From positions 1-18,133 of the forward strand of contig JAJFTL010000036.1 of the NCBI GenBank assembly GCA_021373025.1: a stretch of 18,133 nucleotides of DNA. The letters run 5' to 3'. Source of the stretch: a bacterium. GTDB taxonomy: Bacteria > Caldisericota > Caldisericia > Cryosericales > Cryosericaceae. The notes below the pieces were generated by a model. It was not told the origin of the DNA, did no database searches, and worked only from the letters and a program-made list of their open reading frames with translations. Positions 2,166 through 17,565 of the stretch are shown here, in pieces. The position numbers were made by a program, and so were the translations under genes. Each line of letters starts with the position of its first letter. The stretch's first letter is position 1.

Positions 2166-2233
2166 TGTCACTACCTCCTACCGAGCTCATGTTCTGCAGG
2201 GTCGAGCACTACATGCCCGCTTCATGCATGTTC

Positions 2234-3154
2234 TCACCACAACTGCGCGACTTCGCCCGCTATGTTGTTCATCGCAATACCAATGGGCGTCACGAACAGC
2301 GGCTCCCCTGGTATGATTGTCTCGATACCGGTAACTTCTTCAATGACACGGTCCATGCCAGGAAAACGTGCAGAACCTCCACACAGGTAGATCCGCTTGG
2401 GATGATAAGCCTCAACGTGACGCGATACAATGGTCGCGACTTTTTCCATAACTGCCTTGACAGCCGGGAAGAGCCTGGCCTGTTCAGCGGGATTCGTTTT
2501 GAGTGCCTCTGCATCCATGAATGGAATGTGCATAGCCCCAGCGACAACGAGGGTGAACTGCGTTCCGCCAGTTGGCTCATCCGCCGTATACACGACCTTG
2601 CCACCTTCAATGACGGCAAGCTTTGTCGTTCCACCACCAACGTCGACAACGACGCCGCTGTCGATCTGAAGGATCGTGTTTGCAGCAGTGGCTTCATCGA
2701 CAAGTCGGGAACATTCAATGCCGGCTCCCTGCAGCACGTTGCCTGTGGCACGCACTTCCGCTAGAGGAACGCCGGGCGGATAGGCCGTCGCAGCTGATTC
2801 GATCTTGCGTCCGATTCGCTCTTCCACCTGCTGTTTCAGCTTCCTGACGATGCTGATGGCGCCCATATAGTCAAACACGACTCCTTCCCGCACGACCTGA
2901 GCAAACTGGTAAGCGCCGGCAAGAGGTGTCATGTTTTCGTCCAGGACGACCAGGACCGTATAAGCAGTCCCAAGATCAACGCCAACATGTAGTTCGCCCT
3001 TGTATGATACCGACGGGGCGGGCGTTCCGGCATAGACGATGACCTTGTCGGCTTCATCGAGGACTTCCTGCAACCTCGGGTTCATGCCCCCCGACTCTGT
3101 TGCAAGCTTCAGGGCACTCCGCCTTTTCTCATCGACCCCTGACTGTATCATCAT
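2234..3154 (-). CDS. eutJ: EutJ, an actin/Hsp70-fold putative chaperonin of the eut operon
   Basis: 306 aa. The protein aligns along its length with E. coli EutJ, including the VGVDLGT phosphate-1 motif, DVGGGTT and LCGGSA motifs. The first ATG overlaps the pduO stop as ATGATGA. An alternative internal start (MNPRLQ) lies at 3085. Confidence 0.8.
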   Translation of the reverse strand: MMIQSGVDEKRRSALKLATESGGMNPRLQEVLDEADKVIVYAGTPAPSVSYKGELHVGVDLGTAYTVLVVLDENMTPLAGAYQFAQVVREGVVFDYMGAISIVRKLKQQVEERIGRKIESAATAYPPGVPLAEVRATGNVLQGAGIECSRLVDEATAANTILQIDSGVVVDVGGGTTKLAVIEGGKVVYTADEPTGGTQFTLVVAGAMHIPFMDAEALKTNPAEQARLFPAVKAVMEKVATIVSRHVEAYHPKRIYLCGGSARFPGMDRVIEEVTGIETIIPGEPLFVTPIGIAMNNIAGEVAQLW

Positions 3155-3690
3155 GCGTTATGTTCCTCTCCAGCTTCTTCATATCTTGCCAGTGCAAACA
3201 AGACATCCGAGGTTCTGTTGAGATATGCTGCCACGTTTTCGTTGGGAAGTTCACCAGACTCCATGAGGCCGATGACCCGCCGTTCTGCACGCCGGACGAC
3301 AGCGCGAGCCAGATCAATCGCAGCAGCTCCCACGGTCGCTCCCGGTATGATAAAGACGTTGGGCATGGACACCTTGCTCTCGATATCAACAATACATTGC
3401 TCGAGCTTTTTGACCATCTCTGCAGTGACAATCCACCCATGCTCCGCCAGCCTGTCATGGTACATGGGTTCCGTCGCCAGTTCGGCTGCCACAATACCAA
3501 GATCCTTCTGGATTCTGTCCAAGATCTCGCGAGAGTATTGTCGAACACACAGAGCCTTTGCGAGACCCAGTGTCGAGTTCAGTTCATCTATAGTTCCATA
3601 TGCTTCAGGCCGGGGGCTATTCTTGGAGACGCGCCCTCCATACAACAAACTCGTCTGTCCCTTGTCTCCAGCACCAATATTCGGTTTCAT
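3151..3690 (-). CDS. pduO: PduO-type ATP:cob(I)alamin adenosyltransferase
   Basis: 179 aa. The N-terminus GAGDKGQTSLLYGGRVSKNSPRPEAYGTIDELNS matches the PduO/MMAB family signature (TGDKG-TSL ... R-x-x-K ... E-x-YG-x-DEL). The size indicates the adenosyltransferase domain only, with no DUF336 extension. Confidence 0.85.
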   Translation of the reverse strand: MKPNIGAGDKGQTSLLYGGRVSKNSPRPEAYGTIDELNSTLGLAKALCVRQYSREILDRIQKDLGIVAAELATEPMYHDRLAEHGWIVTAEMVKKLEQCIVDIESKVSMPNVFIIPGATVGAAAIDLARAVVRRAERRVIGLMESGELPNENVAAYLNRTSDVLFALARYEEAGEEHNA

Positions 3691-3783: not shown

Positions 3784-3987
3784 CTATCCGAATGAGACGG
3801 GCGGGCGGGGAGGCCTGCAGGACTCGCTGTCTCCGGCCGATTCTTCGAAACGGATCTCCATACGCCACTGCTTGATAAAATCAGCAGCTGATGGAGAGAA
3901 GCGCGTGCCGACTGGAAAACACAGAACGATCCCTGTCTCCGGTCTCCGTATCTTGCTTCTTATTTCTGCTTCGGTAACGATTCGCAT
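3784..3987 (-). CDS. Small hypothetical protein (67 aa) carrying an EutQ N-terminal-like motif
   Basis: VTEAEIRSKIRRPETGIVLCFPVGTRFSPSAADFIKQWRMEI aligns position by position with the N-terminus of the EutQ in this window (ISKFDIERLKSEGQTVLHLEPGDTLTPLARDTALELGIKL). It also aligns with E. coli EutQ (LITANDIRAAHARGEQ...SIITPEAREVADLLGF). An SD GAGGAG lies 7 nt upstream of the ATG. The ORF sits in the gap between eutC1 and pduO. Confidence 0.4.
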   Translation of the reverse strand: MRIVTEAEIRSKIRRPETGIVLCFPVGTRFSPSAADFIKQWRMEIRFEESAGDSESCRPPRPPVSFG

Positions 3988-4068: not shown

Positions 4069-4824
4069 CTACAGTTTGAGCGCGACGCCGCTCACCTTCT
4101 GCTCCAACATGCGCTTCGCGATATCAACAATCGTCGCTGCAGCTTCCATCGGGTTCAGGCCCTGGCTGTAGATGTTCGAGATACAGTTCCTTTCGCCATC
4201 AGTGTCAGTCATCTTTGCCTTATATGCCATGTAGGCGCTGAGACTGGTTTGAGTAACCAGGCCGGGCCGTTCACCGATCAGCATGATAGCGACGTCAGGC
4301 TGCAGAACACGGCACACGTCATTCAACAGACGAACACGACCATTGTCCACATAGAACGGTGTCCCAAATGTGATACCGGCAGCCTCAAAACCATGTTTCA
4401 AAGCTGGCAGCAGATCTGGCAGATTCTCCATGACAGCAGAAGACGAGAGTCCTTCACTGATAAACACCTGAACCTGCGCTCCCTTCTTGCAATGAGCAAG
4501 AATCGCTTCTTCAGCTTCCTTGGTGAGAATGCCACCTTTCTCGGGATGGGCGAGGTAATCGTGCTTGTCCGTACAGACTGTGGAAACGCGAAGCGCAACG
4601 CCATGCTCCGTCAGGAACTCGTCAGGGATCCTGGTCCAGATCGCATCCTTCGCCGATGCTTCATCAAGACGGAACGACAACCATGCATCCACGGGAGGCC
4701 TGGCTCCTACACGCCCCGTTGCAATACGTGCAGGAGTTGCTCGCATCATTCCTTCGATCGCTTCGCGGTTGTATGGATTCTTGACACCCATTGCCCTGTG
4801 CTCAAAACCTTTTAGTTCACCCAT
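4069..4824 (-). CDS. eutC: Ethanolamine ammonia-lyase small subunit EutC, copy 1 (short N-terminus)
   Basis: 251 aa. The conserved TPARIATGRVGARPP motif matches TPARIGVGRAGPRP in E. coli EutC. The C-terminal ERPGL...SAYMAYK region is conserved. It lies 15 nt downstream of eutB1. Confidence 0.85.
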   Translation of the reverse strand: MGELKGFEHRAMGVKNPYNREAIEGMMRATPARIATGRVGARPPVDAWLSFRLDEASAKDAIWTRIPDEFLTEHGVALRVSTVCTDKHDYLAHPEKGGILTKEAEEAILAHCKKGAQVQVFISEGLSSSAVMENLPDLLPALKHGFEAAGITFGTPFYVDNGRVRLLNDVCRVLQPDVAIMLIGERPGLVTQTSLSAYMAYKAKMTDTDGERNCISNIYSQGLNPMEAAATIVDIAKRMLEQKVSGVALKL

Positions 4825-4839
4825 TGTGGCCTCCTGTGC

Positions 4840-6228
4840 CTACCAGAGGAAGATGTCAGACGGCTCGGCGGAGAAGATGGACGGATCGCCAGCTCTGTCA
4901 GTGAGTTTGCCATTTTTCAGCAAGCCCATTCGTTCCATCCAGCGCTCAAACTCGGGAGCCGGGTGCCGGTCAAAGACCTCGCGCATCGAGGCGTCATCAT
5001 GGTTGCTCGTGTCCTGGTAGCTCAGCATGACATCGTCACCCATGGGGATACCCATGTAGTAGACAGCACCACCAATCCCAGCAAGCAGGTTCGCCATTTC
5101 CTGACCGTTATGGTTCATATCAACATGGTTGACATAGCAGGGTGCCATGCCCATCGGGAATCCATGCATCTTGCCGGCAAACAAGTCTTCAAGAGTGCCG
5201 TAGGCGATCTGGAAGGTATCAAGATGGGTCTCCGGCCCGATGAACCCAGTGACATTGTTCACACAGAAAGGTCGGAAGTGACGGCCGTATCCATAGGTGC
5301 GGGACTCAAGTGTCTGTTCGTCGCAGCCGAAATCAAGACCGACCGACATCTCGGAGCCTTGGCCGGTCTCGAAATACATAACGTTGGGGCCTGCGCAGAA
5401 GGAGTACTCGCGAGCAAGAGCCCATGCCTCTTCCATCATCTTGAGGTCGATGCCGAAGCCCTTGTTGGCTGGCTCACATCCGGCAATGCTCTGGAAGAAC
5501 AGACCGATGTGTGCGCCACGTTTGGCGGCTTCCATTTGGCCGGTGATGTGCCCAAGAGCTGAGTTCTGGGTAGGAATCTGCCACTTTTCGATGAGCCCAT
5601 ACGTCATCTCAAGGATGCGCACGAGTGTATCTGGAGTTGGATCCACTGGGTTGACGCCGATAACGACATCGCCCGCACCATAGGAAAGGCCGTCAAGAAT
5701 CGAGGCACGAATGCCGTCGATGTCGTCCGTCGGGTGGTTTGGTTGGTTGCGGAAGGACATCGTTCCAGGCAAACCAATAGTGGTGTTGGCCGTTGTCACG
5801 TTAATGATTTTCTTGGATGCAACGACCAGGTCCATGACCGACATGATACGGATAACAGCAGAGATCATTTCCGAGGTCAGCCCGACACGAATTCGTTGAA
5901 TGTCCTCGTTGGTAGTGTTCTGATCAAGCAGGTATCCACGCAGGTCGGCGACGGTCCAACCTTTGATCTTGTTGTAGATAGTCTTGTTCGTATCGTCGAT
6001 GATGACGCGCGTAACTTCGTCTGTCTCATAGGGGAGAACGGGGTTTTCGAAGATATCCTGAAGGGTCAGATTCGCTACAACCCACTTGGCCGCGATACGC
6101 TCGCGTTCGGATTGTGCTGCGACCCCGATCAATTCATCGCCGGACCGCTTCTCTGCCGATTTGGCAAGGACATCCTTCACAGACTTGAAGGAATACGCCT
6201 GTCCTTGCAGCGTTGTTGTGAGATTCAT
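4840..6228 (-). CDS. eutB: Ethanolamine ammonia-lyase large subunit EutB, copy 1 (the more divergent paralogue)
   Basis: 462 aa. PNHPTDD, LSYGAGDVVIGVNP, NVMYFETGQGSE, GFIGPE and GIPMGDDVMLSYQ are EutB TIM-barrel signatures. The region after GFIGPE diverges markedly from canonical EutB and from copy 2. Confidence 0.9.
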   Translation of the reverse strand: MNLTTTLQGQAYSFKSVKDVLAKSAEKRSGDELIGVAAQSERERIAAKWVVANLTLQDIFENPVLPYETDEVTRVIIDDTNKTIYNKIKGWTVADLRGYLLDQNTTNEDIQRIRVGLTSEMISAVIRIMSVMDLVVASKKIINVTTANTTIGLPGTMSFRNQPNHPTDDIDGIRASILDGLSYGAGDVVIGVNPVDPTPDTLVRILEMTYGLIEKWQIPTQNSALGHITGQMEAAKRGAHIGLFFQSIAGCEPANKGFGIDLKMMEEAWALAREYSFCAGPNVMYFETGQGSEMSVGLDFGCDEQTLESRTYGYGRHFRPFCVNNVTGFIGPETHLDTFQIAYGTLEDLFAGKMHGFPMGMAPCYVNHVDMNHNGQEMANLLAGIGGAVYYMGIPMGDDVMLSYQDTSNHDDASMREVFDRHPAPEFERWMERMGLLKNGKLTDRAGDPSIFSAEPSDIFLW

Positions 6229-6265
6229 ATATTACTCCTGATTGTGAGATTCATAGCTCCTCCTG
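6216..6265 (-). repeat. Tandem direct repeat (about 25-nt unit) duplicating the SD, ATG and first four codons of eutB1, creating a 9-codon leader ORF (MNLTIRSNI*) whose TGA overlaps the eutB1 ATG
   Basis: On the minus strand the sequence reads CAGGAGGAGCT ATG AAT CTC ACA ATC AGG AGT AAT ATA TGA. The eutB1 ATG (6228-6226) overlaps that TGA and continues AAT CTC ACA ACA ACG. The 13-mer TTGTGAGATTCAT occurs at 6216-6228 and again at 6242-6254. Confidence 0.6.
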
Positions 6266-6341
6266 AAACTCTCGGTTCCTGGTTGATACACAAATATCCT
6301 CGAACATCGAGGCCGCGGCTTCGATACCCCCTGCACGACCG

Positions 6342-7586
6342 CTACGGAACGATTGGACTTGGCGTCGTTTTGCCAAGTTTGATCGTCTCCTGGAATGGAC
6401 GCCAGAGGCCAGTGTTCTCATCACGACCCTGAAGAAGCACCACGCGAGCCGCACTTGCTTGGCCAGGAAGTGCCTCCTTATACAGCGATCCAATATCTCC
6501 ACCCTTCACTCGATTGATGAGGTAGATCAGCTTCGTCTGTGGAAACTGGGTCATCATCTCAAAGTCACCATCGCTGTCGCCGGCAACAAAGAGAGGAGCT
6601 TCTTTGATGAAGTTGCGAATGACCGTTGCTTTTCCCATGCGCTGGGTCAGTTCATAGCCGGGTTCTTCACTCAGCTTGGCAATGTACTTCCCGGACGCAT
6701 CCGTCTGGAGACGAACGCCAATCACATGGTCTTCAGGAACGTCGTACCCGTTGATTGCGGCAACTGCCTGGACGACCGGCTCAAATGATGCAGATACCAC
6801 CCACACCTTCCAGCCATAATACCGCTGTTTCGACATCATGTCGATGATGCCCTGGGAAAGGCGGATGCCTGCCCTATATGTATACGAGGCTACAGCGGCT
6901 TTTCGCTCAAGACCTGTTGGGGCATGCATAGTAATCTTCTCGATCTTACGAGCAAGTGCATCATTGAGTGCGGCGACTGCCATCTTCTGGACTTCCGCCT
7001 CGGTCATCCCTTCGCAGAGAAAACAGACCCAAGGATACGAGTACTCGGCACCAATCTCGGGAGTGTCTGTCAGCCCATCATACATGAATGGCAGTTTGAC
7101 CAGAAAATCCTGATACTCTGGTGTCGCCGTGATTTCCTCCAGCGTCATCTTCTTGAGACCGATATAGTTGTCATACAAAAAGGCATAGTCGGCCTGAATG
7201 TCCGAGGCGAGGTCCGCAAGAACCACATTGCCATAATCGGCCGAAAACTTCACAACATTGGAATCCTTGAGGGTCTTTCCTGCAGCTTCCGGGATAATGC
7301 TGTTGAAAGCTTCTTTACTCATTGCATAGTCCAGGTTGAACATCTGGAAACGGAACATCGTCTCCATGATGTCATTGTAGATGCACGTATTATCCCAGTC
7401 ATAGACGGCCACCGGATGCGTCGGACCATACTTCTTGATAAACCAGTCCGTATAGATCCAGTTAAACGGTGTATAGCCAACGTACGTTCCGGACGGAACG
7501 CCGGCTGCCAGGGTGATACCTGAAACCGATGAAACGAGCAGTGCGACAAGGAGCACAATCGATATGATCTTGATGGTTCGTTTCAT
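6342..7586 (-). CDS. Secreted or membrane-anchored HAD-superfamily hydrolase (HAD-IB-like with a large cap domain)
   Basis: The start is re-assigned to the ATG at 7586, which is preceded by a GGGGA SD. The N-terminus MKRTIKIISIVLLVALLVSSVSGITLAAG is a signal peptide or signal anchor. HAD motif I is VAVYDWDNT (DxDxT). Motif II is VWVVSAS. Motif IV is LFVAGDSDGDFEMM. The ORF track extends the frame to 7748 through an intergenic hairpin, which is unlikely to be real coding sequence. Confidence 0.7.
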   Translation of the reverse strand: MKRTIKIISIVLLVALLVSSVSGITLAAGVPSGTYVGYTPFNWIYTDWFIKKYGPTHPVAVYDWDNTCIYNDIMETMFRFQMFNLDYAMSKEAFNSIIPEAAGKTLKDSNVVKFSADYGNVVLADLASDIQADYAFLYDNYIGLKKMTLEEITATPEYQDFLVKLPFMYDGLTDTPEIGAEYSYPWVCFLCEGMTEAEVQKMAVAALNDALARKIEKITMHAPTGLERKAAVASYTYRAGIRLSQGIIDMMSKQRYYGWKVWVVSASFEPVVQAVAAINGYDVPEDHVIGVRLQTDASGKYIAKLSEEPGYELTQRMGKATVIRNFIKEAPLFVAGDSDGDFEMMTQFPQTKLIYLINRVKGGDIGSLYKEALPGQASAARVVLLQGRDENTGLWRPFQETIKLGKTTPSPIVP

Positions 7587-7631
7587 ATTGTTTCCCCTTT
7601 CGTTGGGATGGGGCGTGCCTGGCATGTGCAA

Positions 7632-7674
7632 TGAGACGAGGGTCAGTTCACAAGAGCAGGCCAACCCTCGCCTC
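7632..7674 (-). promoter_or_regulatory. 12-bp inverted repeat (one G·U wobble) with a 20-nt spacer, located 45 to 90 nt upstream of the HAD-hydrolase start codon
   Basis: Minus-strand sequence: TGAGGCGAGGGT tggcctgctcttgtgaactg ACCCTCGTCTCA. It could be a 5'-UTR hairpin or an operator-like palindrome. Confidence 0.3.
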
Positions 7675-7705
7675 AGGAAACAATGTAACTTGCTCCACAT
7701 GATAC

Positions 7706-7738
7706 CGCTGGCTCGGCCCGTTTCGGGATGGAGCCAGC
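7706..7738 (-). promoter_or_regulatory. Stem-loop following the eutQ stop (GCTGGCTC...GAGCCAGC outer stem with an inner CCCG-AAA-CGGG). Candidate U-tract-less terminator or processing site.
   Basis: Minus-strand sequence: TAG TTATTGAGATACA GCTGGCTC CAT CCCG AAA CGGG CC GAGCCAGC GGTATCATG. The outer stem is an 8-bp perfect stem enclosing a 4-bp inner hairpin. Nothing downstream is U-rich. Confidence 0.35.
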
Positions 7739-7751
7739 TGTATCTCAATAA

Positions 7752-8447
7752 CTAGGAGTTGATCTGCTCTGTCCAGTTGGACGGGAACGTAACGTAGAAG
7801 ATCTTGGTCCAGGTCGGGGTATTCCAGTGAACAGCAGAACCCTTGGGGATGAAGACACAATCACCACGATCTGCAACGAGCGTCTTCCCCTCGCACGTGA
7901 TCTCCATGCGACCCTCAACGACGTAATCAATCTCGTCATAGTTTAGTGTCCAGCTGAAGCCAGGCCCCTTGTGCCATGACATGAATCCACCGGAAATGCT
8001 GGCGGAGTCATCCATCGTAATCACGTCCAAAAGTCGGAAATCAATCTCTGGTGGATCTCTCCGGACGCCATCTTTGTCAATGAGCGGGGAGGATGGCATA
8101 TCGGCATCTTGTGGATACTTTGCCAATTTCAGCTGGCCAGGACGAGTGCCATAGACCTTCGGTGTTGAGCACGGAGGGCATGTTTCAGGCTGACCAGCCG
8201 GTCCAAGACGCTCAAGAACGGCCTTGACAATCGCCTCAAGCTTGTCCGCGCTTGGTGCAGGCGCAGTCGTCGGAGCAGGAGCGCTGCCATGAATCGGTTC
8301 TCTGGAGTCTTCAAGCTTGATGCCCAGCTCGAGCGCGGTATCACGAGCCAAAGGGGTCAAGGTGTCACCAGGCTCGAGATGGAGGACAGTTTGTCCTTCG
8401 CTCTTGAGTCTTTCAATGTCGAACTTTGAAATGATGCGCTTCTCCAT
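7752..8447 (-). CDS. eutQ: EutQ, a cupin-fold ethanolamine utilisation protein (acetate-kinase type)
   Basis: 231 aa. The C-terminal cupin GDCVFIPKGSAVHWNTPTWTKIFYVTFPSNW matches E. coli EutQ GDVMFIPKGSSIEF...YVAWPANW. The N-terminal I-x-x-x-DI...TPLARDTALELGI motif is typical of EutQ. A Pro/Ala-rich linker separates the two parts. Confidence 0.75.
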   Translation of the reverse strand: MEKRIISKFDIERLKSEGQTVLHLEPGDTLTPLARDTALELGIKLEDSREPIHGSAPAPTTAPAPSADKLEAIVKAVLERLGPAGQPETCPPCSTPKVYGTRPGQLKLAKYPQDADMPSSPLIDKDGVRRDPPEIDFRLLDVITMDDSASISGGFMSWHKGPGFSWTLNYDEIDYVVEGRMEITCEGKTLVADRGDCVFIPKGSAVHWNTPTWTKIFYVTFPSNWTEQINS

Positions 8448-8546
8448 ATTGAATTCTACCTCCCTAAAGTATCGGCCGGAACAACCGTCTCGTCATACAC
8501 CCGAGAGTGCTGGAGCGACAGTCGTCCGACTGAGGTCGGGTACCAG

Positions 8547-8846
8547 CTACTCAGCGTCGGCCGGCCGCTTCGGCAGCAACATTTCCGTGTCGCTGGCTGG
8601 ACGAGGGATAACATGAACCGAGACAAGTTCACCGACGCGCTGAGCGGCGGCTGCACCTGCATCGGTAGCAGCTTTGACAGCTCCGACGTCACCACGTACC
8701 ATAACGGTAACAAGTCCGGAACCGATTCGTTCCTGGCCAATCAGCTTGACGTTTGCTGCCTTGACCATGGCGTCGGCGGCCTCAATAGCTCCGACGAGTC
8801 CCTTGGTTTCAATCATGCCAAGTGCAATCATGCCTGGATCTGCCAT
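8547..8846 (-). CDS. eutM: BMC-H hexameric shell protein (EutM/PduA family)
   Basis: [32 protein letters not shown]...[32 protein letters not shown] is the canonical BMC domain. An ATG at 8846 is preceded by AAGGAG at 8 nt. The ORF track start at 8855 is a GTG. Confidence 0.85.
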
Positions 8847-8895
8847 AGGTATCACTCCTTTAAGAAAAAAATAGGAAAACTCTCTGGTTGTTGCT

Positions 8896-8921
8896 GCGTC
8901 CCCTGCTCGCGCAAGGGACGC
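8896..8921 (-). promoter_or_regulatory. Intercistronic hairpin between eutH and eutM (GCGTCCC...GGGACGC, about 7 to 10 bp). A T-rich stretch lies about 17 nt downstream.
   Basis: Minus-strand sequence: GCGTCCCTTGCGCGAGCAGGGGACGC, followed by AGCAACAACCAGAGAGTTTTCCTATTTTTTTCTTAAAGGAG ... ATG. Confidence 0.35.
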
Positions 8922-8935
8922 ATAGTCCCGAATTC

Positions 8936-10111
8936 TTAGGCTGCCACCGGTTCGCGGTAGTCAGCCTTCGGAGCAACCAGAGTTGCTATGATAAGACCGA
9001 GGATACCGGCAAAAAGCTTGCCGATGATTAACGGCCCGATAAACTCCTTCGCGTTAGCCGCCGTGAATCCGAGGTGGTCAGCAAAGGTGAAGGCTGCGGC
9101 AACCTGAAATGCCGCGTTGAGTACCTTTCCACGAGGTGTCATGTCCTTGAACATACCCCACATGGGAATGTTGTTCGCGAGCGTCGCAACAAGTCCTGCA
9201 GCGCCGACATTGTCCATACCCAGCATCCTGCCAAGAGAACTAAGGGGCTTTGCAAGAACGGTCGTCAGGAACTTTACCATTGGATAGGCACCAGCAAGAG
9301 CCAATGCAATGGAGCCAATGACTTCAAGACCTTCCATGACCATAGCCTGGGCCTCGGGATCATAGTGAGAGAACGTGGGGGACATGCCTTGGAGAATCGT
9401 TACGCCGGTCTGGGTCTGGAAGATGACAAGGCCAAGACCCACGAGGATGAAGCTGGTGATGAACTTGCCGAAGTAGATGAAGCCCTTGACCATTGCTTCG
9501 CGCGCAAACAGAAGACCTGCAGCGATCAGAGCTGCAACAATGAAGACGGGAACAAGGTAGGCAAGGGACAGCCCGAAGGGATTGCCTGCCAGAACACTCT
9601 GAAGCAACGCACCAAACGGGGCAACGATGATGCCAGCCAGAATACCAAGCGCCAGATACTTGCGATCTTTTGCTTCAATGATACCAAGTCCGACAGGGAT
9701 GTTGAAGACGATGTTGACACCGAAAACGGAGCCCAGGAGCAGACCACCGAAGTAACCGACCCAGACAGGATCGCCGGCGGTCTTGGCAAGCTGGAGACCG
9801 AGGGGCGTTGCACCCATGTCGATAGCCAGCAGTGTGCCAGCGAACATGGCGGTCTTGGAGCCAAGAGCAGTGTAGATCGGGCCAACCACCGGGATCAGCC
9901 ACTTGCCAAGCAATGGAGTCATTGCGATGATTCCAACCATGGCAAGCGCCAGGGGGCCCATGGCGTTGAAGCCATTCTCCATCTCTGCACCAAAACCATC
10001 AATAATCGGAACCTTCCAGTCTGGAGCCCAATATTTGATGATCCTGTCGATAATGCCAAGAACTGCGAAGATTGCCATGATCCACAATACTACTTTGCTA
10101 ATTGCAGCCAT
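8936..10111 (-). CDS. eutH: EutH ethanolamine permease
   Basis: About 391 aa polytopic membrane protein with many hydrophobic helices, in the EutH family context between eutE and eutM. The start is re-assigned to the ATG at 10111 ([15 protein letters not shown]...), which is preceded by AGGAAGGGG. The ORF track extends a further 44 codons to 10243. Confidence 0.8.
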
Positions 10112-10273
10112 TACTACACCCCTTCCTTTGCATGAGAGTATGGTATATTGCACAGCCAACGTACTATTCCAACTAGTCGGAATCTCACTTTTCTGTTCTG
10201 TCCAGGCCTTGCCTCCTCTCCGGCCACTGCAGTCACTGCCCATTTGGCCGTCACAGCGTCACGTTCTTCCATC

Positions 10274-11773
10274 CTACCCCTTGTGCGCCAGTTCCTCGCG
10301 GATCACCTTGCGCACCATTGCCTCGATCTCTGACGTAGATGGCTTTTCAGATGTCGCCGAGGCAGCTGGAGCGGAAACGGACGATGACCTGCGCCCATCT
10401 ACGATGGGTGGTTCAAACGGCCGCAGTCCATACGCGATGCGTTTCACATTGAACAGGTGATACACCGTGATGTTGTCACTGCTGATACCACCACCCATAC
10501 CACCAGTAGCCAGGGTCAACGAGGGCATGAGGCCGGTCGTGTACCCAATGGCGCCGCCTGTGGTGCCGGCGTTGACAATGATACGGAATGCAGGTTTCTG
10601 AAGCCCGAACTGCATGATGATGTCCTCATCAGTGCAGTGTAATCCCATCGTGTGTCCCTTGCCGCCAAACTCAAGTATCTCGATGCACCGCGCACACCCA
10701 GCGTGCCACCCGTCCTCGACAAAAAAAGCAACCACGGGGGCAAGCTTCTCGCGCGAAAGAGGGACCTTTGGACCAACTTCGGAGAGCCTGGCGACCAGAA
10801 TGCGTGCCTCGTCAGGAACCTTGAATCCGGCTTGTTCGGCCAGCACCTGTGGTGAGCGCCCTACAAAGTTGGCCTGCATGAGTCCGTTCGAACGGATCAT
10901 GGCTTTGCCCAGCTTGTCAGCCTGCTCATCTGACAAGAAGTATGCCCCGTTTCTCTCCAGGGCTTTCACAAGCTGGTCGGCGATCGGTTTGTCTGCAATG
11001 ATGGCATTCTCATGAGCACAGATGACCGCGTGGTCAAAGTTGACGCTGGTCACAATGTCATGAGCTGCCTTCTCGATGTCCGCGCTGCGATCGACGTAGA
11101 GCGGAACGTTACCAGGACCGACGCCGAGTGCCGGTTTGCCTACGCTGTGCGCGTATGAAACCATGGCTTCGCCACCGGTTGCAACAATCAGCTTGATCTC
11201 GGGCCGCTTGAGCAGCTCCGATGTTCCTTCCATGCTGATGTGTGTCATGCAGCTGATGAGGCCCTTGGGGGCTCCAGCAGCCTCTGCCGCCTCTTCTAGA
11301 ATGCGAACCGCCTCAGCGGTACACTTCGGGGCCGAAGGGTGTGGAAGAATAATGATAGCATTGCGCGCCTTGACGGCGGTAATCGCATTGAAGATTGCTG
11401 TGGATGTCGGGTTGGTCGTGGGGACCATAGCGGCAATGACACCAAAGGGCCAGGCGATCTCGATGATCTTATTGGCTTCATCACGTCTGATAACGCCCTC
11501 TGTCCGAACATCCTTGATGGACATCCATACGTTCTTCGATGCAAACTGGTTTTTGATCGTCTTGTGCTCAGCGACACCCATGTGCGTCTCTTCGGCTGCC
11601 ATGCGGCCAAGACGCTCTGCTGCTTCGTATGCAGCTTCAGCCATCGATGCACAGACGACGTCAACCTGGTATTGGTTAAAGTGAACAAATGCTTCCTGCG
11701 CGACCTCAGCCTGCTGTGCCAGATTTCGGGCCTCTTGAATAGAGAGCAGGTCTTGGTCGAGTTCTTCCGGCAT
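10274..11773 (-). CDS. eutE: EutE/PduP-type CoA-acylating aldehyde dehydrogenase with a C-terminal encapsulation-peptide-like helix
   Basis: 499 aa with an ALDH fold. The catalytic-Cys region reads VNFDHAVICAHENAII. The ATGGEAMV region typical of acylating ALDHs is present. After the catalytic domain comes an S/A-rich linker (RRSSSVSAPAASATSEKPSTS), then an amphipathic helix EIEAMVRKVIREELAHKG at the extreme C-terminus. An SD AAGAGGAGG lies upstream. Confidence 0.9.
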   Translation of the reverse strand: MPEELDQDLLSIQEARNLAQQAEVAQEAFVHFNQYQVDVVCASMAEAAYEAAERLGRMAAEETHMGVAEHKTIKNQFASKNVWMSIKDVRTEGVIRRDEANKIIEIAWPFGVIAAMVPTTNPTSTAIFNAITAVKARNAIIILPHPSAPKCTAEAVRILEEAAEAAGAPKGLISCMTHISMEGTSELLKRPEIKLIVATGGEAMVSYAHSVGKPALGVGPGNVPLYVDRSADIEKAAHDIVTSVNFDHAVICAHENAIIADKPIADQLVKALERNGAYFLSDEQADKLGKAMIRSNGLMQANFVGRSPQVLAEQAGFKVPDEARILVARLSEVGPKVPLSREKLAPVVAFFVEDGWHAGCARCIEILEFGGKGHTMGLHCTDEDIIMQFGLQKPAFRIIVNAGTTGGAIGYTTGLMPSLTLATGGMGGGISSDNITVYHLFNVKRIAYGLRPFEPPIVDGRRSSSVSAPAASATSEKPSTSEIEAMVRKVIREELAHKG

Positions 11774-11801
11774 GTTCTGCCTCCTCTTACAGATCTCCGC
11801 C

Positions 11802-11821
11802 CCGGTTCAGACTCAAACCGG
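11802..11821 (-). promoter_or_regulatory. Intercistronic hairpin between eutL and eutE (CCGGTT-TGAGTCTG-AACCGG)
   Basis: 6-bp perfect stem with an 8-nt loop. The strong eutE SD AAGAGGAGG follows. Confidence 0.3.
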
Positions 11822-11865
11822 AACGCCTATCAGAAACGACGTCGTGCGAGTTGCAGAACACTACT

Positions 11866-12540
11866 CTACTGGAAGGCCAGCGGGTCCTGGGCCACAGACA
11901 TGATGGCCTCATCGAACGCACGGCAGGCGGCACGGCAAGCACTCTGTGTGCCGACCAGATAAGCGCCCTGATAGTTGGTCTCACTGAGCTGCGTGAATGC
12001 GCCAACTGATACATCAGCAGCCTTCAATGCCCGCTCCATCGCATAGGTACCTTCAAGAGGCGGTGCAGTGATGTATGCAATCGGTGTGCCGGCTGGAACT
12101 CCGGCCTCCTTCGAGAGATATGTGCCGGTACGGGAGATTGTGTACGCCAGCCAGACCAGTGTGGGCACAACACTAAAGTGCGGCATTGTGACCGTCGAGT
12201 ATCGCAGCGAGTCCACAAACTCGAAGACTGCATTGATCCCCGCAGTAGCTTCTGCAGGATTTGGCGCCGCCAGGAAAAGCATAGCTTCGCCCGAAATGGG
12301 ACCAGACGGGTAGCTACCACCAGCGAAGTGCGAGCGGCAGTATGCTACACGGACCTCGGCTTTCTTGGTCGCTTCATCTCCGCCGATATACAGCGGATCA
12401 TCGATATTGCAGGTGAACATTGCCAGACTCTTCTCACCTTCGAGGAGACCCAGTGTCTTGGCCATGTCGGGATGAACATTGGGAATGAGTCTCACCGACA
12501 GGATTTCTGGCTTCAGGGTACGTTCCATCTCTAGAGCCAT
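11866..12540 (-). CDS. eutL: EutL, a tandem-domain BMC-T shell protein
   Basis: 224 aa. It aligns along its length with E. coli EutL, including IGGDEATKKAEVRVAY, GPNPAEATAG, VSRTGTYLS, YITAPPLE and GTQSACRAACRAF. An SD GGAAGGAG lies upstream. Confidence 0.85.
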   Translation of the reverse strand: MALEMERTLKPEILSVRLIPNVHPDMAKTLGLLEGEKSLAMFTCNIDDPLYIGGDEATKKAEVRVAYCRSHFAGGSYPSGPISGEAMLFLAAPNPAEATAGINAVFEFVDSLRYSTVTMPHFSVVPTLVWLAYTISRTGTYLSKEAGVPAGTPIAYITAPPLEGTYAMERALKAADVSVGAFTQLSETNYQGAYLVGTQSACRAACRAFDEAIMSVAQDPLAFQ

Positions 12541-12690
12541 GTCATTTTACTCCTTCCTAATACTCGTTCTCAGGTTGCCCGGAACATCTCTTGAGACTAT
12601 TCCAGACCCTTCGACGGAATCCAGCAGCCGGTCCCGGGGCAGATCCCAGGATCGTGGAATCGACCCCAGGGACCGGTGATTACTACCGTA
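12541..12690 (-). promoter_or_regulatory. 150-nt structured eutC2-eutL intergenic region containing a long GC-rich inverted repeat, nested short palindromes and a twice-repeated GGATTCC motif
   Basis: Minus-strand sequence: CACCGGTCCCTGGGG TCGATTCCACGATCCTGGGATCT GCCCCGGGACCGG (about 12-bp imperfect stem), then CTGGATTCCGTCGAAGGGTCTGGAATAG. The eutL SD GGAAGGAG follows. No U-tract and no recognisable riboswitch consensus was found. Confidence 0.3.
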
Positions 12691-13557
12691 CTAAGCTCTC
12701 TTCGCAGTGGCGAGTGCAACGCCGCTGGTCTTGTACTTCAGGTAATCCTTGACAAGAGCGACTGCCTCAGCAGCTGCTTCGATCGGGTCCTTGCCGCGCT
12801 TGGAGATCATGCAGATGTTGTCGCGGTTAGCATCGGTCGTGAGCGGCTCCCAACGAGGCTTGTAGCCCATGTAGATGGAGAGTGCATCAGAGATGATGAG
12901 ACCCGGGCGCTCGCCAATCAGTACGACGACGACCTCTGCGTTCAGGAGCGCTCCAACATCATTCATGATGCCGACGCGTGCGCGGTTGACATAGATCGGG
13001 GTACCGATATTGATGCCGGCAGCCTTGAGTCCATCAATCATTGCATTCAGGACGTCCTTGGCGGAATGCTCGATGGCGTATCCACTCAGGCCGTTGCTGA
13101 CAACAAACTGAACGGTCGGGTTCTTGGCACACTTCTCAAGAACGACGGCCTTGGCCTCGTCACTCAGCTTTCGGCCAAGCGGAGGAAAGCGCAGATAGGT
13201 CTCAAGAGAGCCATTTGCAGCAGTCTCGCCGACATGTAGGAGTCCCATTGCCGTAACGGTCTCTTCTGGAATAACGTACTTCAATGAGTCCTGTGTAGCA
13301 GCATGGTCCGCTCGCATCTGGAAATACGTGAGCAGCTTTGGACGGGGACCGTTGCGACCAACGCAAATGCGAAGAGGTGTCGCATGGATGAGGGCCTTTG
13401 CGCCTTCAGGATCGACCGGATGATCGATGCCAACAGTTTCGCGAGCCTCTGTCGTCGTCACATCGGTCACGTCACAGCTGAACTTGGCAGCTTCGTCGCG
13501 CCTTGCTACAATGTCAGCCTGGCTCTGCTTTCCAACGTAAAGTTCGTATGTAGCCAT
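12691..13557 (-). CDS. eutC: Ethanolamine ammonia-lyase small subunit EutC, copy 2 (with an N-terminal extension of roughly 50 aa)
   Basis: 288 aa. The ATPLRICVGRNGPRP motif and the C-terminal GERPGL...SIYMGYKP region are conserved. It lies 15 nt downstream of eutB2. Confidence 0.85.
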   Translation of the reverse strand: MATYELYVGKQSQADIVARRDEAAKFSCDVTDVTTTEARETVGIDHPVDPEGAKALIHATPLRICVGRNGPRPKLLTYFQMRADHAATQDSLKYVIPEETVTAMGLLHVGETAANGSLETYLRFPPLGRKLSDEAKAVVLEKCAKNPTVQFVVSNGLSGYAIEHSAKDVLNAMIDGLKAAGINIGTPIYVNRARVGIMNDVGALLNAEVVVVLIGERPGLIISDALSIYMGYKPRWEPLTTDANRDNICMISKRGKDPIEAAAEAVALVKDYLKYKTSGVALATAKRA

Positions 13558-13572
13558 GTCTACTCTCCTTTC

Positions 13573-14940
13573 CTACCGCTTCAGGAAGAACGATGCGTCG
13601 CCGGCCTTGTCGGTCAGTTTGCCATTCTTGAGCAGGCCAAGTTCCTCAAGCCACTGCTCCCATTCAGGAGCGGGGCGAGTACCCATTGCACTCCAGAGCG
13701 AAGCGGTATCGTGGAAGCTTGCGCACTGATAGCTCAACATGACATCGTCTCCCATCGGCACGCCCATATGGTAGTTGCAGCCGGCGACGGCATCAAGGAC
13801 CATCAGGAACTCGTTCGTGTTCTGATCGGCGCGGACGTGGTTCGTGTAGCAGTTGTCCAACCCGAGCGGAATGCCGAGGAGTTTCCCGCAGAAGTGATCC
13901 TCAAGACCAGCGCGCATGATTTCGTCGGAGTTGTACAGATATTCCGGTCCGATGAACCCTACAACGGAGTTGACGCCGATAGGATTGTAACGACGGGCAA
14001 GGGCATGCTTGCGTGCTTCGAGTGTCAGCTGGTCAGCACCATTGTTCGCATAGGCGGACAGTTCTGTGCCTTCACCAGTCTCAAAATACATATAGTTGGG
14101 GCCTTCAGCATAGCAGTACTTGTGTGCCAGTTCATTGGCTTCGTCAAGCATGCCAACTTCGACACCGAAGGACTCAAGAGCAGCCTGGGTTCCCGCAATG
14201 CTCTGGAAGACCTGGCCAATCTTGGCACCCTTCTTCAGACACTCCATCTGCGTCGTAACATGGCCCAAAATGCAGTTGGACGCAGGGATATTCCACGTCT
14301 GCTTGATATCCCACAAGACGTCGTAGATCTTCATGAGGTTCTCAACCTGGTCAATTGCCGGGTTAATGCCGATAACCTGGTCGCCGATGCCATATGACAA
14401 ACCATCGTAGACCTCGGCGCGAATGGCATCGATGTCATCGGTTGGATGGTTTGGCTGAAGACGTGCACCAATGCGACCGGGGAGGCCCATTGTACAAACG
14501 TTGTGAACCACGCACGGCATCTTCTTGCCCCCGACAATAAGGTCAAGGCTTGAGCAAAGCTTGGCGATGGCCGCAGCCATTTCGCCGGTAAGACCATGGC
14601 TGATTGCTCTGATGTCTTCAGATGAGGTATTCTCATCAAGGATCCAGGCGCGCATCTCACCAACAGTCTTGTTTTTGATCTTCTCGTAGGCGACGGCGTC
14701 AATGTCATCGTCAATAGCACGAGTGACCTCGTCTTCTTCATACGGAACAACCGGCTGGGCGCGGAGAACCCACATCGGGATCTCGGCAAGAACAGTCTTT
14801 GCCGCTACCCTTTCCTCAACACTTTTTGCGGCAACACCCGCCCCTTCGTCGCCGGACTTCTGTTCGTTCGCTTTGGCGAGAACTTCTTTGACGTCTTTGA
14901 ACTCGTACGTTCTGCCAAACAGTTTAGTACGAAATGCCAT
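13573..14940 (-). CDS. eutB: Ethanolamine ammonia-lyase large subunit EutB, copy 2 (canonical-like)
   Basis: 455 aa. PNHPTDDIDAIRAEVYDGLSYGIGDQVIGINP, NYMYFETGEGTELS, VVGFIGPEYLYNSDEIMRAGLEDHF, NCYTNHVRADQNT and GVPMGDDVMLSYQ closely match canonical EutB. Confidence 0.9.
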   Translation of the reverse strand: MAFRTKLFGRTYEFKDVKEVLAKANEQKSGDEGAGVAAKSVEERVAAKTVLAEIPMWVLRAQPVVPYEEDEVTRAIDDDIDAVAYEKIKNKTVGEMRAWILDENTSSEDIRAISHGLTGEMAAAIAKLCSSLDLIVGGKKMPCVVHNVCTMGLPGRIGARLQPNHPTDDIDAIRAEVYDGLSYGIGDQVIGINPAIDQVENLMKIYDVLWDIKQTWNIPASNCILGHVTTQMECLKKGAKIGQVFQSIAGTQAALESFGVEVGMLDEANELAHKYCYAEGPNYMYFETGEGTELSAYANNGADQLTLEARKHALARRYNPIGVNSVVGFIGPEYLYNSDEIMRAGLEDHFCGKLLGIPLGLDNCYTNHVRADQNTNEFLMVLDAVAGCNYHMGVPMGDDVMLSYQCASFHDTASLWSAMGTRPAPEWEQWLEELGLLKNGKLTDKAGDASFFLKR

Positions 14941-14952
14941 GTTTCCTCCTTG

Positions 14953-16422
14953 TCACATAGAGAAGATAAGCGTCTTCACTGAAAGAGAGACAAGACGATC
15001 TCCTAGCATCGATTGACCAATGTCAATGTAATCCCCTTCTGTCAGAGTGACTTCATCAATCGAGAGCACCTTGAACTGGGGTAGCCCGGCACTTACGACC
15101 TGTCCCAATGCTTTGCCCAGGTCGCGCTCAGTCACCAGAATCAGTGGGATACTCGGCGAAATGTACTTGGTGGCAAACGATTCTATACCGTGTGCCAGCT
15201 TCTTCAGGTCGTCATAGCTGCCCACTGCCAACAAGTCAAGAGCGAGAGCTACTCGATCCTTTGTGGGATCGAGATCCCAGCGATTATAGCCATCCATAAT
15301 CGATTTTTCAAGCACCTGTTCGTCGGGGATGCCATCGAATATTGGACGGATAACTGGGACATTGCGCATGGGTAGCTCCTTTGGAGCAACCCATATGGTC
15401 ATGCCACTCAACGTGATTGTCTCGTGGCTAGCGCCCATGACGGTCGCACGCTCAGTGTGAACAGGCTTGAGTACTGTCCACTCCTTGACGCGCGGGTGAT
15501 TCCGTAATTCCTCGCCCATGAGAGGTCCGATGTCACCGTAGACAGCGACATCCTGGATGGTTCTGATGGGGTTGCTATCGTAGTAGAAGTCCGCGACTCC
15601 GCCCGAGAAGAAGATCGTCGTACCGGCAACAGACCGGGATAATGGAGTGGTTTCCATCAGATCACGGGCCATCCGTGACACATTGGCGGACAAGACTTCG
15701 ACGATCAGGTCCACCATGAGATGTGCAACCTTGCGAAGAACATCTACTGTAGCAACATCACCAACCTTGAGCTCGATGCCAAGATGGTTCAGCATCTTCT
15801 CACCACTCTTGGTGATATGCTTGACGGTTCCCGTCGCCTGGTCTACCTGGATATGGCGTCCTCCGACCGAGAGGACGACCGTGTCCACAAGGTCTCCCTG
15901 CCGGAACACTGCGATGTTCGTCGTACCACCGCCGATATCGACGTTGGTTGCCCACGCAAAGTGCTCAGAAGACCATGCAGCTGCTCCGGAACCACGGCCA
16001 GCCAGGTGGGCCTCCAGACTGGGGCCAGCGACGGTCGACACAAAGTCTCCTGCGAGCGGAGCCACGATATTGAGCACGCGCTCAGCATTCTGGCTCTTGG
16101 CGGCTTCCCCTGTGATGATGACTGCACCTGTATCGATCTGATCGGGCGTAAAACCCGCTTCCTTGTAGTCAGCAGTCAAGATCTTCTCCAGTTCATCAAC
16201 GTCCACCAGTCCGTTGGGATCAATGGGCGTAAAGTGCACGGGGCTCTGATAGAGGACGTCCTTCTTGGCAACATCCGCTCTCGGTTTGCGTGCAGGGCCA
16301 TACCTTGCCTGCGGCATCGAGCTGAGGGTCGCCGTCTCCGCAACGAGCAATTTCGAGATAACGATCTGTGTCGTCGTTGTCCCTATGTCCACTCCAACAC
16401 TGATGAGTTCAACTGATGCCAT
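14953..16422 (-). CDS. eutA: EutA ethanolamine ammonia-lyase reactivase
   Basis: About 489 aa. Two ASKHA-type ATPase motifs are present (VGVDIGTTTTQIV and NVDIGGGTTNIAVF). Overall it resembles EutA. The start is re-assigned to the ATG at 16422 (MASVELISVG), which is preceded by GAGAGGTG. The ORF track extends to 16488. Confidence 0.85.
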   Translation of the reverse strand: MASVELISVGVDIGTTTTQIVISKLLVAETATLSSMPQARYGPARKPRADVAKKDVLYQSPVHFTPIDPNGLVDVDELEKILTADYKEAGFTPDQIDTGAVIITGEAAKSQNAERVLNIVAPLAGDFVSTVAGPSLEAHLAGRGSGAAAWSSEHFAWATNVDIGGGTTNIAVFRQGDLVDTVVLSVGGRHIQVDQATGTVKHITKSGEKMLNHLGIELKVGDVATVDVLRKVAHLMVDLIVEVLSANVSRMARDLMETTPLSRSVAGTTIFFSGGVADFYYDSNPIRTIQDVAVYGDIGPLMGEELRNHPRVKEWTVLKPVHTERATVMGASHETITLSGMTIWVAPKELPMRNVPVIRPIFDGIPDEQVLEKSIMDGYNRWDLDPTKDRVALALDLLAVGSYDDLKKLAHGIESFATKYISPSIPLILVTERDLGKALGQVVSAGLPQFKVLSIDEVTLTEGDYIDIGQSMLGDRLVSLSVKTLIFSM

Positions 16423-16435
16423 GAATACACCTCTC

Positions 16436-17271: not shown

Positions 17272-17565
17272 TCATGACTTGTTGAAGGTATCGTGGCCAT
17301 CAACTTCCAGGGAATCAAGGATACCGACGATCGTGGCATCGGCAGGAGCCTGGTCTGTGAGATCCGTTTGTCTGCCCGCGCTGCCGAGAGCTACGAGGAC
17401 AAGTTCTCCCTCGCCAGCGCCTACGGCGTCAACGGCAACGATCGGGTTGCCCTCCAGCAGTTCATTCCGTACCGTCGCCTGTTGAACGATCAAGAGCTTG
17501 CGGGCCGAAAGTTTCCCGGCCTTGATCGTTGAGACTGCCGAGCCAACAACGCGAGCAATGATCAT
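17272..17565 (-). CDS. eutN: EutN/PduN/CcmL-family BMC-P pentameric vertex protein
   Basis: 97 aa. MIIARVVGSAVSTIKAGKLSARKLLIVQQ...IVAVDAVGAGEGELVLVALGSAGRQ matches the EutN/CcmL fold signature (M-x-I-A-x-V-x-G-x-V-x-S-T-x-K...D-x-x-G-A-G-x-G-E-x-V-L-V). An SD GGGAGGA lies 8 nt upstream. Confidence 0.8.
   Translation of the reverse strand: MIIARVVGSAVSTIKAGKLSARKLLIVQQATVRNELLEGNPIVAVDAVGAGEGELVLVALGSAGRQTDLTDQAPADATIVGILDSLEVDGHDTFNKS

Follow-up and report, generated by a model that had tools for sequence, protein, structure and literature searches.

The window analyzed here, a stretch of 18,133 nucleotides (contig JAJFTL010000036.1 of assembly GCA_021373025.1), is a single minus-strand operon for an ethanolamine utilization (EUT)-type microcompartment from the Caldisericota (Candidatus Cryosericum), with its genes identified by Pfam scans, and it encodes two intact pairs of ethanolamine ammonia-lyase subunits, EutB1C1 and EutB2C2, along with one reactivase, EutA. 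The two large subunits belong to two old, family-wide classes, here named D-type (Tyr334/Asp362) and AP-type (Thr334/Ala362-Pro363): EutB2 is of the former kind and EutB1 of the latter. The reading best supported by these sequences, and one that we favor tentatively, is that EutB1C1 differs from EutB2C2 in substrate range, which may be either different or wider.

Comparison of the Two Lyase Pairs

Regarding their position, both pairs lie exactly where the first-pass annotation, made from the sequence alone, had put them, and all four genes are on the minus strand. EutB1 and EutB2 align without gaps and are identical at 225 of 452 positions (50%), which bears out the estimate by eye of about one half; identity between EutC1 and EutC2 is 39%. 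Both EutB copies match the family models over their full length and pass the NCBIfam cut-off (NF011649, 554 bits), with scores of 591.7 bits in Pfam (PF06751) and 575 bits in NCBIfam for EutB1, and of 621.4 and 602.6 bits, respectively, for EutB2. As for the small subunits, EutC1 passes with both models (245.6 bits for PF05985 and 250.1 bits for NF003971, the latter having a cut-off of 230 bits), whereas EutC2 passes in Pfam (201.3 bits) and stays under the NCBIfam cut-off with 212.6 bits.

EutB1 aligns residue for residue to positions 1-452 of E. coli EutB, and equally without gaps to the sequences of the structures 3ABO and 2QEZ, so that the E. coli numbering applies; both copies are about 52-54% identical to the E. 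coli protein. In the latter, the hydroxyl group of the substrate is reportedly held by Glu287, Arg160, and Asn193, and its amino group by Glu287, Gln162, and Asp362, in the work of Shibata (2010) and Mori (2014); the present comparison corroborates these roles only insofar as each of the five sites has the expected type of residue in E. coli EutB. The set is complete in EutB2, which also has Tyr334, and incomplete in EutB1, where Arg160, Gln162, Asn193, and Glu287 are kept and position 362 is Ala, followed by Pro363. In the comparison of substrate contacts proposed at first pass, the copies differ at one reported binding residue (D362A) along with coupled or neighboring positions, and they agree at the other four. 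The motifs GFIGPE, CYxNH, and MGxPxGDD are kept in EutB1.

The first-pass annotation had also stressed the divergence that follows the GFIGPE motif and had quoted one peptide from each copy; both peptides are correct by translation, and the region is a true hot spot, with residues 331-345 and 361-375 of the EutB1 clade among its four top-scoring segments in a sliding shift score, and with no peak at these positions for EutB2. The description of pair 2 as canonical held in part: EutB2 keeps all five reported binding residues, but EutC2 is under the curated cut-off and the EutB2 clade has some odd changes. In particular, this clade has Glu at the otherwise invariant Gln290, three residues after the catalytic Glu287 (ETGEGT compared to ETGQGS), and it also carries M129C, Y312H, and T407A.

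D-Type and AP-Type Classes and Their Phylogeny

Among 299 EutB sequences, sampled as the top matches to two queries, 146 have Asp362, and 145 of these have Tyr334 (in the last one, 334 falls in a gap); Ala362-Pro363 is found in the remaining 153, accompanied by Thr334 in 152 of them. Ala362-Pro363 occurs in all the 128 AP-type and in all the 25 EutB1-clade sequences of this sample, while the solved EutB sequences, from E. coli and Listeria, are both D-type. A search among representatives at 50% identity merged nearly the whole family into a few entries and supplied outgroups only. Only four positions separate the D-type from the AP-type cleanly (296, 327, 334, and 362); two of these, 296 and 327, are altered once more among the EutB1-clade proteins.

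In a neighbor-joining tree rooted with distant EutB-like proteins, the AP-type and the EutB1 clade together are monophyletic (100/100 bootstraps), the D-type is paraphyletic, and the EutB1 clade is itself monophyletic (100/100), sitting on a long branch within the AP-type class; copy 1 does fall in a distinct clade, a point that the first pass had proposed to check. EutB1 clade sequences are 57% identical to the AP-type (range 53-61%), whose members share 73% on average among themselves. About nine close clusters of EutB1 (77-95% identical, all of 462 residues) were found among 5.8 billion proteins, with the next matches at 59% or less, and a scan of species genomes placed its relatives in the Caldisericota (Candidatus Cryosericum, 87-96%) and in the Anaerolineae/Anaerolineales (78-80%). 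EutB2 is also on a long branch, with relatives of its own clade at 71-92% and then EutB from Chloroflexi and Actinobacteria at about 64%. Every related locus with enough flanking sequence has both pairs, in the same order.

EutB1 is therefore nearer to the Firmicutes AP-type proteins than to EutB2, and EutB2 is nearer to those of Chloroflexi and Actinobacteria, which agrees with the ancient paralogy proposed earlier; the split is even deeper than was then supposed, because the two copies belong to two old classes of the family. A recent tandem duplication of eutBC was considered and discarded on the same identities and on the tree, the copies not being each other's closest relatives. As for EutC1, it is about 40% identical to every group, and the EutC phylogeny gives no class assignment.

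Remodeling of the EutB1 Barrel and Its Constraint

The signature residues of EutB1 are Thr334, Leu336, Ala362, Pro363, Val366, His373, and Met396. Eight changes occur only in its clade, at sites where every other group has a conservation of 90% or more (A24S, K127R, D197P, C223S, Y336L, A344G, T366V, and Q373H); by the same measure the EutB2 clade has five, including Q290E. Four of the residues altered in the EutB1 clade are invariant in the AP-type (Y336L, T366V, Q373H, and G396M). The AlphaFold model of EutB1 is a (beta/alpha)8 barrel of eight strand-helix units, with a predicted local distance difference test score of 89.7 and a predicted template modeling score of 0.91. In this model, residues 327, 334, 336, 362, 363, 366, and 373 are on the catalytic face, either where strands 6 and 7 terminate on their C-terminal side or in the loops after these strands. 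Most of the changes specific to the clade are likewise at C-terminal strand ends or in beta-alpha loops of the predicted barrel. Finally, a C-terminal tail of ten residues, always ending in FLW, is found in this clade alone.

Regarding constraint, the nonsynonymous divergence (dN) from a Cryosericum relative is 0.032 for EutB1, the lowest of the 14 genes of the locus, against 0.060 for EutB2, 0.068 for EutC1, and 0.128 for EutC2. EutB1 is the slowest-evolving gene of the locus and it keeps Arg160, Gln162, Asn193, and Glu287; on these two grounds, the possibility that copy 1 is a pseudo-enzyme, which had been named at first pass as one that would defeat the proposal, was ruled out.

Recurrence in Other Operons

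D-type and AP-type EutB occur together, with one EutA in one operon, in Caldisericota, Anaerolineales, Carboxydothermus, Zhaonella, and Geosporobacter. In Carboxydothermus ferrireducens (locus L054, 6710-13790) and Zhaonella formicivorans (L055, 6522-13874), the D-type EutBC comes first, then BMC-H (a hexamer-type bacterial microcompartment shell protein) and EutP, and then the AP-type EutBC with EutA; both EutC proteins have classic N-terminal amphipathic helices. Geosporobacter subterraneus DSM 17957 (L021, 7172-12269) has EutA, a D-type and an AP-type EutB of 455 residues each, and a single EutC of 297 residues, all intact; the two EutB types share this one EutC, an indication that the difference resides in the large subunit. 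In Bacillus massilioanorexius (L023, 10001-20883), an AP-type EutB and a short EutC (253 residues, without extension) lie directly upstream of EutW and EutV (ANTAR), and the locus continues with EutH, EutP, EutA, a D-type EutB, and an EutC of 297 residues. This is the second case of an AP-type partner EutC that lacks the extension.

As for the neighboring genes, those of the MttB methyltransferase family adjoin AP-type loci in five cases (L008, 1-8830; L009, 13950-21365; L045; L054, 1-5455; L055, 360-2498) and none of about 19 loci that have the D-type only. Genes for corrinoid proteins accompany them in L008, L009, and L054, and genes for APH-type kinases in L008, L009, and L045. This set resembles the MthK/MthB/MthC/MthA system for choline demethylation; the MthK/MthB/MthC pathway has dimethylaminoethanol as its end product in Eubacterium limosum (PMC12155760). 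No MttB or kinase gene was found in the related Cryosericum-type loci examined. Other genes near these loci include a HAD_2 hydrolase in L009 and L055 and a pterin-binding methyltransferase in L009; in Thermincola and Carboxydothermus, MttB was called as two adjacent open reading frames (ORFs) of 149 and about 327 residues, with PylC/PylD-like genes nearby.

EutC and Targeting

The first-pass annotation held that EutC1 lacks an N-terminal extension of roughly 50 residues. The absence was seen in every relative, but the size was overestimated: EutC1 is 37 residues shorter than EutC2 (251 vs 288), with an alignment offset of about 30. All the proteins of the EutC1 clade have 251-252 residues and a matching start about 10 residues ahead of the conserved core, and EutC1 aligns from residue 56 of the 295-residue E. 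coli EutC; it has no N-terminal amphipathic helix of the kind that forms the Salmonella-type encapsulation peptide. In characterized EutC proteins, as noted at first pass, the extension carries the encapsulation signal; in EutC2, its 30-40 residues are conserved and not clearly amphipathic, and the N-terminus does not resemble the classic peptide. The AP-type EutC proteins of Firmicutes do have classic amphipathic N-terminal helices. With the peptide of EutC1 lost and the FLW tail of EutB1 gained, recruitment of pair 1 probably differs from that of pair 2, and the tail may be a candidate for a replacement interaction signal.

The Four-Gene Cassette

Between the gene of a HAD hydrolase and that of EutJ, the window has a cassette of four genes: EutB1, EutC1, a 67-residue ORF, and a PduO-type adenosyltransferase. 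A syntenic Spirochaetales locus (metagenome contigs L056/L057, 1-12159) lacks exactly these four, with the HAD gene abutting EutJ. It has a sole EutB, and identities to the proteins of the window are 89% for this EutB (with EutB2), 80% for EutC (with EutC2), and 67% for the HAD protein. This locus acts as a natural presence/absence control and indicates that the second lyase is part of an accessory four-gene block.

The 67-residue ORF matches residues 1-59 of the 255-residue Thermincola adenosyltransferase and is kept after EutC1 in all the relatives; a role as an adaptor of EutB1C1 was discarded, since the ORF corresponds to the N-domain of longer adenosyltransferases of the PduO type, here detached from the rest. 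Since the HAD hydrolase is present in the Spirochaetales locus without EutB1C1, it is to be counted with the EutB2-type locus and has no tie to EutB1. Its presence there, together with its absence from several Anaerolineales loci that have EutB1, excludes it as a specific partner of EutB1 in scavenging phospho-amino alcohols, and its similarity to the phosphorylcholine phosphatase 4AS2 was not significant (E 0.49). The HAD-IB hydrolase family to which it belongs is small (135 matches), and no function is known for 4gxt, the best solved relative; members within EutB2-type EUT loci are from Caldisericota, Spirochaetales, and one Anaerolineae metagenome-assembled genome, and those outside eut loci from Bacteroidota, Brevibacillus, and Desulfosporosinus.

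Proposed Function and Alternatives

In the proposed scheme, the D-type EutB2C2 would be the signature enzyme and likely the core ethanolamine ammonia-lyase, with EutA as its reactivase; acetaldehyde would pass to the aldehyde dehydrogenase and, in the relatives, then to PTAC phosphotransacylase and acetate kinase, whose genes lie downstream of PduS in their loci. EutB1C1 is predicted to be an intact adenosylcobalamin-dependent amino-alcohol lyase of the AP-type class, in which Tyr334/Asp362, on the presumed amine side of the pocket, are replaced by Thr334/Ala362-Pro363; its clade appears to have remodeled the same loops further (S327T, Y336L, T366V, Q373H, and G396M). The enzyme would deliver the same kind of aldehyde to the same downstream enzymes, starting from other amino alcohols, or from a broader range of them, than EutB2C2; the most plausible substrates would be those whose amine is substituted or bulkier, for example N-methylated ethanolamines. 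EutA would serve both pairs, and the EutB1 tail might take part in targeting. N-substituted ethanolamines fit the position of the changes and the gene context in Firmicutes better than aminopropanols do; for aminopropanol isomers, which had been suggested as substrates of copy 1, no specific support was found. The more specific version, namely that the AP-type class, EutB1C1 included, is no ethanolamine ammonia-lyase in a strict sense but a B12-dependent lyase for N-methyl- and N,N-dimethyl-ethanolamine, possibly also for choline, which would release methylamines and acetaldehyde in the microcompartment, is unlikely on present evidence.

However, several points weigh against a difference in substrate range. 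Nothing in the window points directly to N-substituted ethanolamines, and it has no methylamine-handling genes. In Thermincola and Desulfosporosinus, complete EUT loci have no EutBC other than the AP-type, which also occurs beside EutW-like kinases in Lysinibacillus and beside EutW/EutV in B. massilioanorexius; this company of ethanolamine-responsive regulators fits a plain ethanolamine lyase activity. As the AP signature is common to a large class that serves as the sole EutBC in such complete loci, D362A alone is no proof of a new substrate. No assayed AP-type enzyme was found in the literature, nor any link there between an AP-type lyase and methylated ethanolamines. Moreover, the residue roles, that of Asp362 included, are those reported for the E. 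coli enzyme, the nearness of residues 296, 327, 334, 336, 366, and 373 to the substrate is deduced from barrel topology only, the EutB sample consists of top matches and not of a family-wide survey, and dN/dS values are rough because dS is saturated.

A close rival, which we regard as quite possible, is that both pairs cleave ethanolamine and are isozymes that differ in affinity or turnover, in resistance to suicide inactivation, in cobamide preference, or in location; without the EutC1 peptide, pair 1 might even supply nitrogen from outside the shell, or depend on another mode of recruitment. The complete EUT loci and the regulators just described speak for it, as do the B. massilioanorexius AP-type pair, which has a short EutC and is encoded outside the block of shell genes, and the cassette's own adenosyltransferase, which hints at a theme of cofactor handling. 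Going by its title, a paper on Klebsiella pneumoniae (PMC11101070) treats an ethanolamine metabolism that uses two genetically distinct loci, which would be in line with this rival. On the other hand, it is the reported amine-binding site of the large subunit that holds the class-defining changes, and not EutC, the subunit lying against the lower cobalamin face; in Geosporobacter, a single N-extended EutC would give both EutB types the same location and the same lower-ligand contacts; the AP-type EutC of Firmicutes carry classic encapsulation peptides; and redundant co-transcribed isozymes would be hard to keep in several phyla. Separate regulation cannot explain co-transcribed paralogues. Ahead of EutB1, no credible riboswitch or ANTAR site was found in Rfam at E of 1 or less, nor was there any strong terminator, and only a weak conserved hairpin was seen.

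That the changes of pair 1 merely prevent mixed alpha/beta assemblies with pair 2, leaving the chemistry as it is, seems improbable. The long branches of both clades, the substitutions A24S, K127R, A344G, and L419F in the N-terminal domain or in helices outside the pocket, and the new C-terminal tail, which could be an assembly element, would all suit such insulation, but the strongest shifts are in the beta6 and beta7 loops next to residue 362 and not spread over surfaces, and Geosporobacter tolerates two EutB types with one EutC. Least credible of all is a non-catalytic or regulatory paralogue, be it a scaffold, a sensor, or a decaying copy: Asp362 and the EutC N-terminus are indeed lost, and the cassette is dispensable in the syntenic Spirochaetales locus, yet EutB1 retains the conserved motifs of the family and, except for Asp362, all five of the reported binding residues, it is the most constrained gene of the locus, both EutB1 and EutC1 pass the curated family cut-offs, and Ala362 is common to the whole class that acts elsewhere as the sole signature enzyme.

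Relation to Known Systems and Significance

EutB1 and EutB2 share fold and length with the E. coli and Salmonella EutBC (3ABO and others) and with Listeria EutB (2QEZ). In contrast to these, EutB1 has Thr334, Ala362-Pro363, Leu336, Val366, His373, and the ten-residue FLW tail, EutC1 has no N-terminal peptide, and EutB2 has Q290E. The Thr334/Ala362/Pro363 set is shared with the AP-type EutBC of Thermincola potens, Desulfosporosinus orientis, Carboxydothermus ferrireducens, Zhaonella formicivorans, and Lysinibacillus; the AP-type proteins of Firmicutes and Deltaproteobacteria are annotated as EutBC and are, to our knowledge, uncharacterized. Unlike them, the EutB1 clade has no adjacent EutA, its EutC lacks their N-terminal encapsulation helix, and the FLW tail is present.

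Two lyase copies in one cluster also occur in Pelobacter carbinolicus, as the fused eutBC1 and eutBC2, and its authors speculated, without testing it, that the duplication reflects two substrates, ethanolamine and choline (PMC3543383). Differently from the locus described here, those copies are 70% identical, both subunits are fused, and the genome has no eutA (PMC3543383). At that identity, the Pelobacter duplication is much younger. The cleavage of choline was subsequently ascribed to CutC, a glycyl radical enzyme; if the AP-type class does act on methylated ethanolamines, it would be the cobalamin-dependent counterpart of CutC and would provide the missing step downstream of MthK/MthB-type choline demethylation. 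In that case, the cassette would let the ethanolamine organelle of Cryosericum also process the head-group amines that plant and fungal lipids supply in thawing peat, with the FLW tail of EutB1 as a cargo-recruitment signal of a new kind.

In the microcompartment catalogue (Sutter et al. 2021, PMC8217296), EUT2-type metabolosome loci have features also found in the window: BMC-H, BMC-T, and BMC-P shell proteins, an aldehyde dehydrogenase with a C-terminal encapsulation-like helix, EutA, EutH, EutQ, EutJ, PduS, and an adenosyltransferase. The window adds the four-gene cassette, the exported HAD hydrolase, and a fusion of BMC-H with a helix-hairpin-helix (HhH) domain; in a term search of the main text of the catalogue, no passage on a second divergent EutBC pair was found. 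Compared to the first-pass annotation, the new elements are the FLW tail, the cassette with its adenosyltransferase, the absence of this cassette from the Spirochaetales locus, and the mixed-class EutB of other phyla.

Ethanolamine ammonia-lyase is treated as one uniform enzyme, and its structures and mechanistic studies are all on the Asp362 class; the window points to a second widespread class without Asp362 that has been kept repeatedly beside the first, in the same operon and in several phyla. Should the two classes have different substrates, many eutBC annotations would be misnamed and some EUT microcompartments would handle two substrates; methylated ethanolamines would then be turned into acetaldehyde and methylamines along a B12-dependent route, and this route would bear on the precursors of trimethylamine and methane in guts and peatlands. 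Even if both pairs cleave ethanolamine, they would be a natural co-expressed set of lyases that share one reactivase, and a cargo enzyme that may have exchanged the EutC targeting peptide for an EutB tail, both of use in microcompartment engineering.

Organization of the Locus

The combination of BMC-H, BMC-T, and BMC-P shell proteins with EutBC, an acylating aldehyde dehydrogenase, and cofactor-recycling genes identifies the locus as an EUT-type metabolosome. All the credible genes are on the minus strand, with intergenic gaps of at most about 165 bases, and Table 1 lists them in the order of transcription, which runs from EutN, the BMC-H fusion, and EutA, through EutB2C2, the EutL-like protein, the aldehyde dehydrogenase, EutH, BMC-H, and EutQ, to the HAD hydrolase, the cassette, EutJ, the tandem BMC protein, and PduS. 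The single EutA noted at first pass holds for the window and the related loci, which is the extent of the sequence covered.

Table 1. Features of the operon in the order of transcription, with positions in the window
Feature	Position	Strand	Evidence or remark
EutN/CcmL pentamer shell protein (BMC-P)	17272..17565	-	PF03319, E 3.2e-25
BMC-H shell protein fused to ComEA-like HhH domain	16436..17233	-	PF00936, E 8.7e-27; PF12836, E 3.5e-20
EutA reactivase	14953..16488	-	PF06277, E 8.2e-148; sole copy within the window
EutB2, D-type large subunit	13573..14940	-	PF06751, E 1.1e-186
EutC2 small subunit, 288 residues	12691..13557	-	PF05985, E 1.9e-59
EutL-like tandem-domain shell protein	11866..12540	-	weak PF00936 match; position kept in all related loci
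Acylating acetaldehyde dehydrogenase	10274..11773	-	PF00171; TIGR02518 588 bits, under the 620 cut-off
EutH ethanolamine permease	8936..10243	-	PF04346, E 1.1e-110
BMC-H shell protein	8547..8855	-	PF00936, E 1.4e-30
EutQ-like cupin with N-terminal extension	7752..8447	-	PF06249, E 6.4e-30
Exported HAD-IB family hydrolase, hydrophobic signal-like N-terminal segment	6342..7586	-	PF12710; TIGR01488
EutB1 large subunit	4840..6228	-	PF06751, E 1.1e-177
EutB1 codons 327-373, beta6-alpha6 and beta7-alpha7 loops	5110..5250	-	S327T, Y334T, Y336L, D362A-P363, T366V, Q373H
EutB1 clade-specific C-terminal tail, SAEPSDIFLW	4843..4872	-	FLW end invariant
EutC1 small subunit, 251 residues	4069..4824	-	PF05985, E 5.6e-73
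67-residue ORF, stand-alone N-terminal domain of longer PduO-type adenosyltransferases	3784..3987	-	31% identity, E 2e-9
PduO-type ATP:cob(I)alamin adenosyltransferase	3151..3690	-	PF01923, E 9.5e-47
EutJ-like actin/Hsp70-fold protein	2234..3154	-	Pfam scan
Tandem-BMC shell protein, PduT-like	1614..2171	-	PF00936, two domains, E 4e-43
PduS-like cobalamin reductase (RnfC/Nuo51-type flavoprotein, Fe-S clusters)	241..1617	-	PF01512, PF13375, PF10531, PF13534

Two of the starts are likely downstream of those listed: that of EutA at the ATG at 16422 (MASVELISVG...; the relatives have 490 residues), and that of EutH near 10111 (381-387 residues in the relatives). No credible Rfam family was found in the window, the lone match with E of 1 or less being a below-threshold eukaryotic 3'UTR element, and no strong terminator was found between the two halves of the operon.

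The aldehyde dehydrogenase ends in an amphipathic helix, SEIEAMVRKVIREELA, similar to an encapsulation peptide, and a C-terminal peptide of this function is described for the EUT2-type enzyme (PMC8217296). The N-terminal half of EutQ, which has no Pfam match, also contains an amphipathic helix similar to an encapsulation peptide, DKLEAIVKAVLERL, after a linker rich in Pro and Ala. In the BMC-H fusion, a low-complexity linker joins the two domains, and the same fusion occurs in an Anaerolineales locus (L002).

Finally, the gap between the HAD and EutB1 genes (6229-6341, minus strand) has a small hairpin, CCTCG-N5-CGAGG, at 6298-6312, whose position is kept in most of the aligned Caldisericota loci. 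A 13-base direct repeat, ATGAATCTCACAA, seen in the window only, duplicates the start of EutB1 and creates a nine-codon upstream ORF (MNLTIRSNI), the stop of which overlaps the EutB1 ATG.

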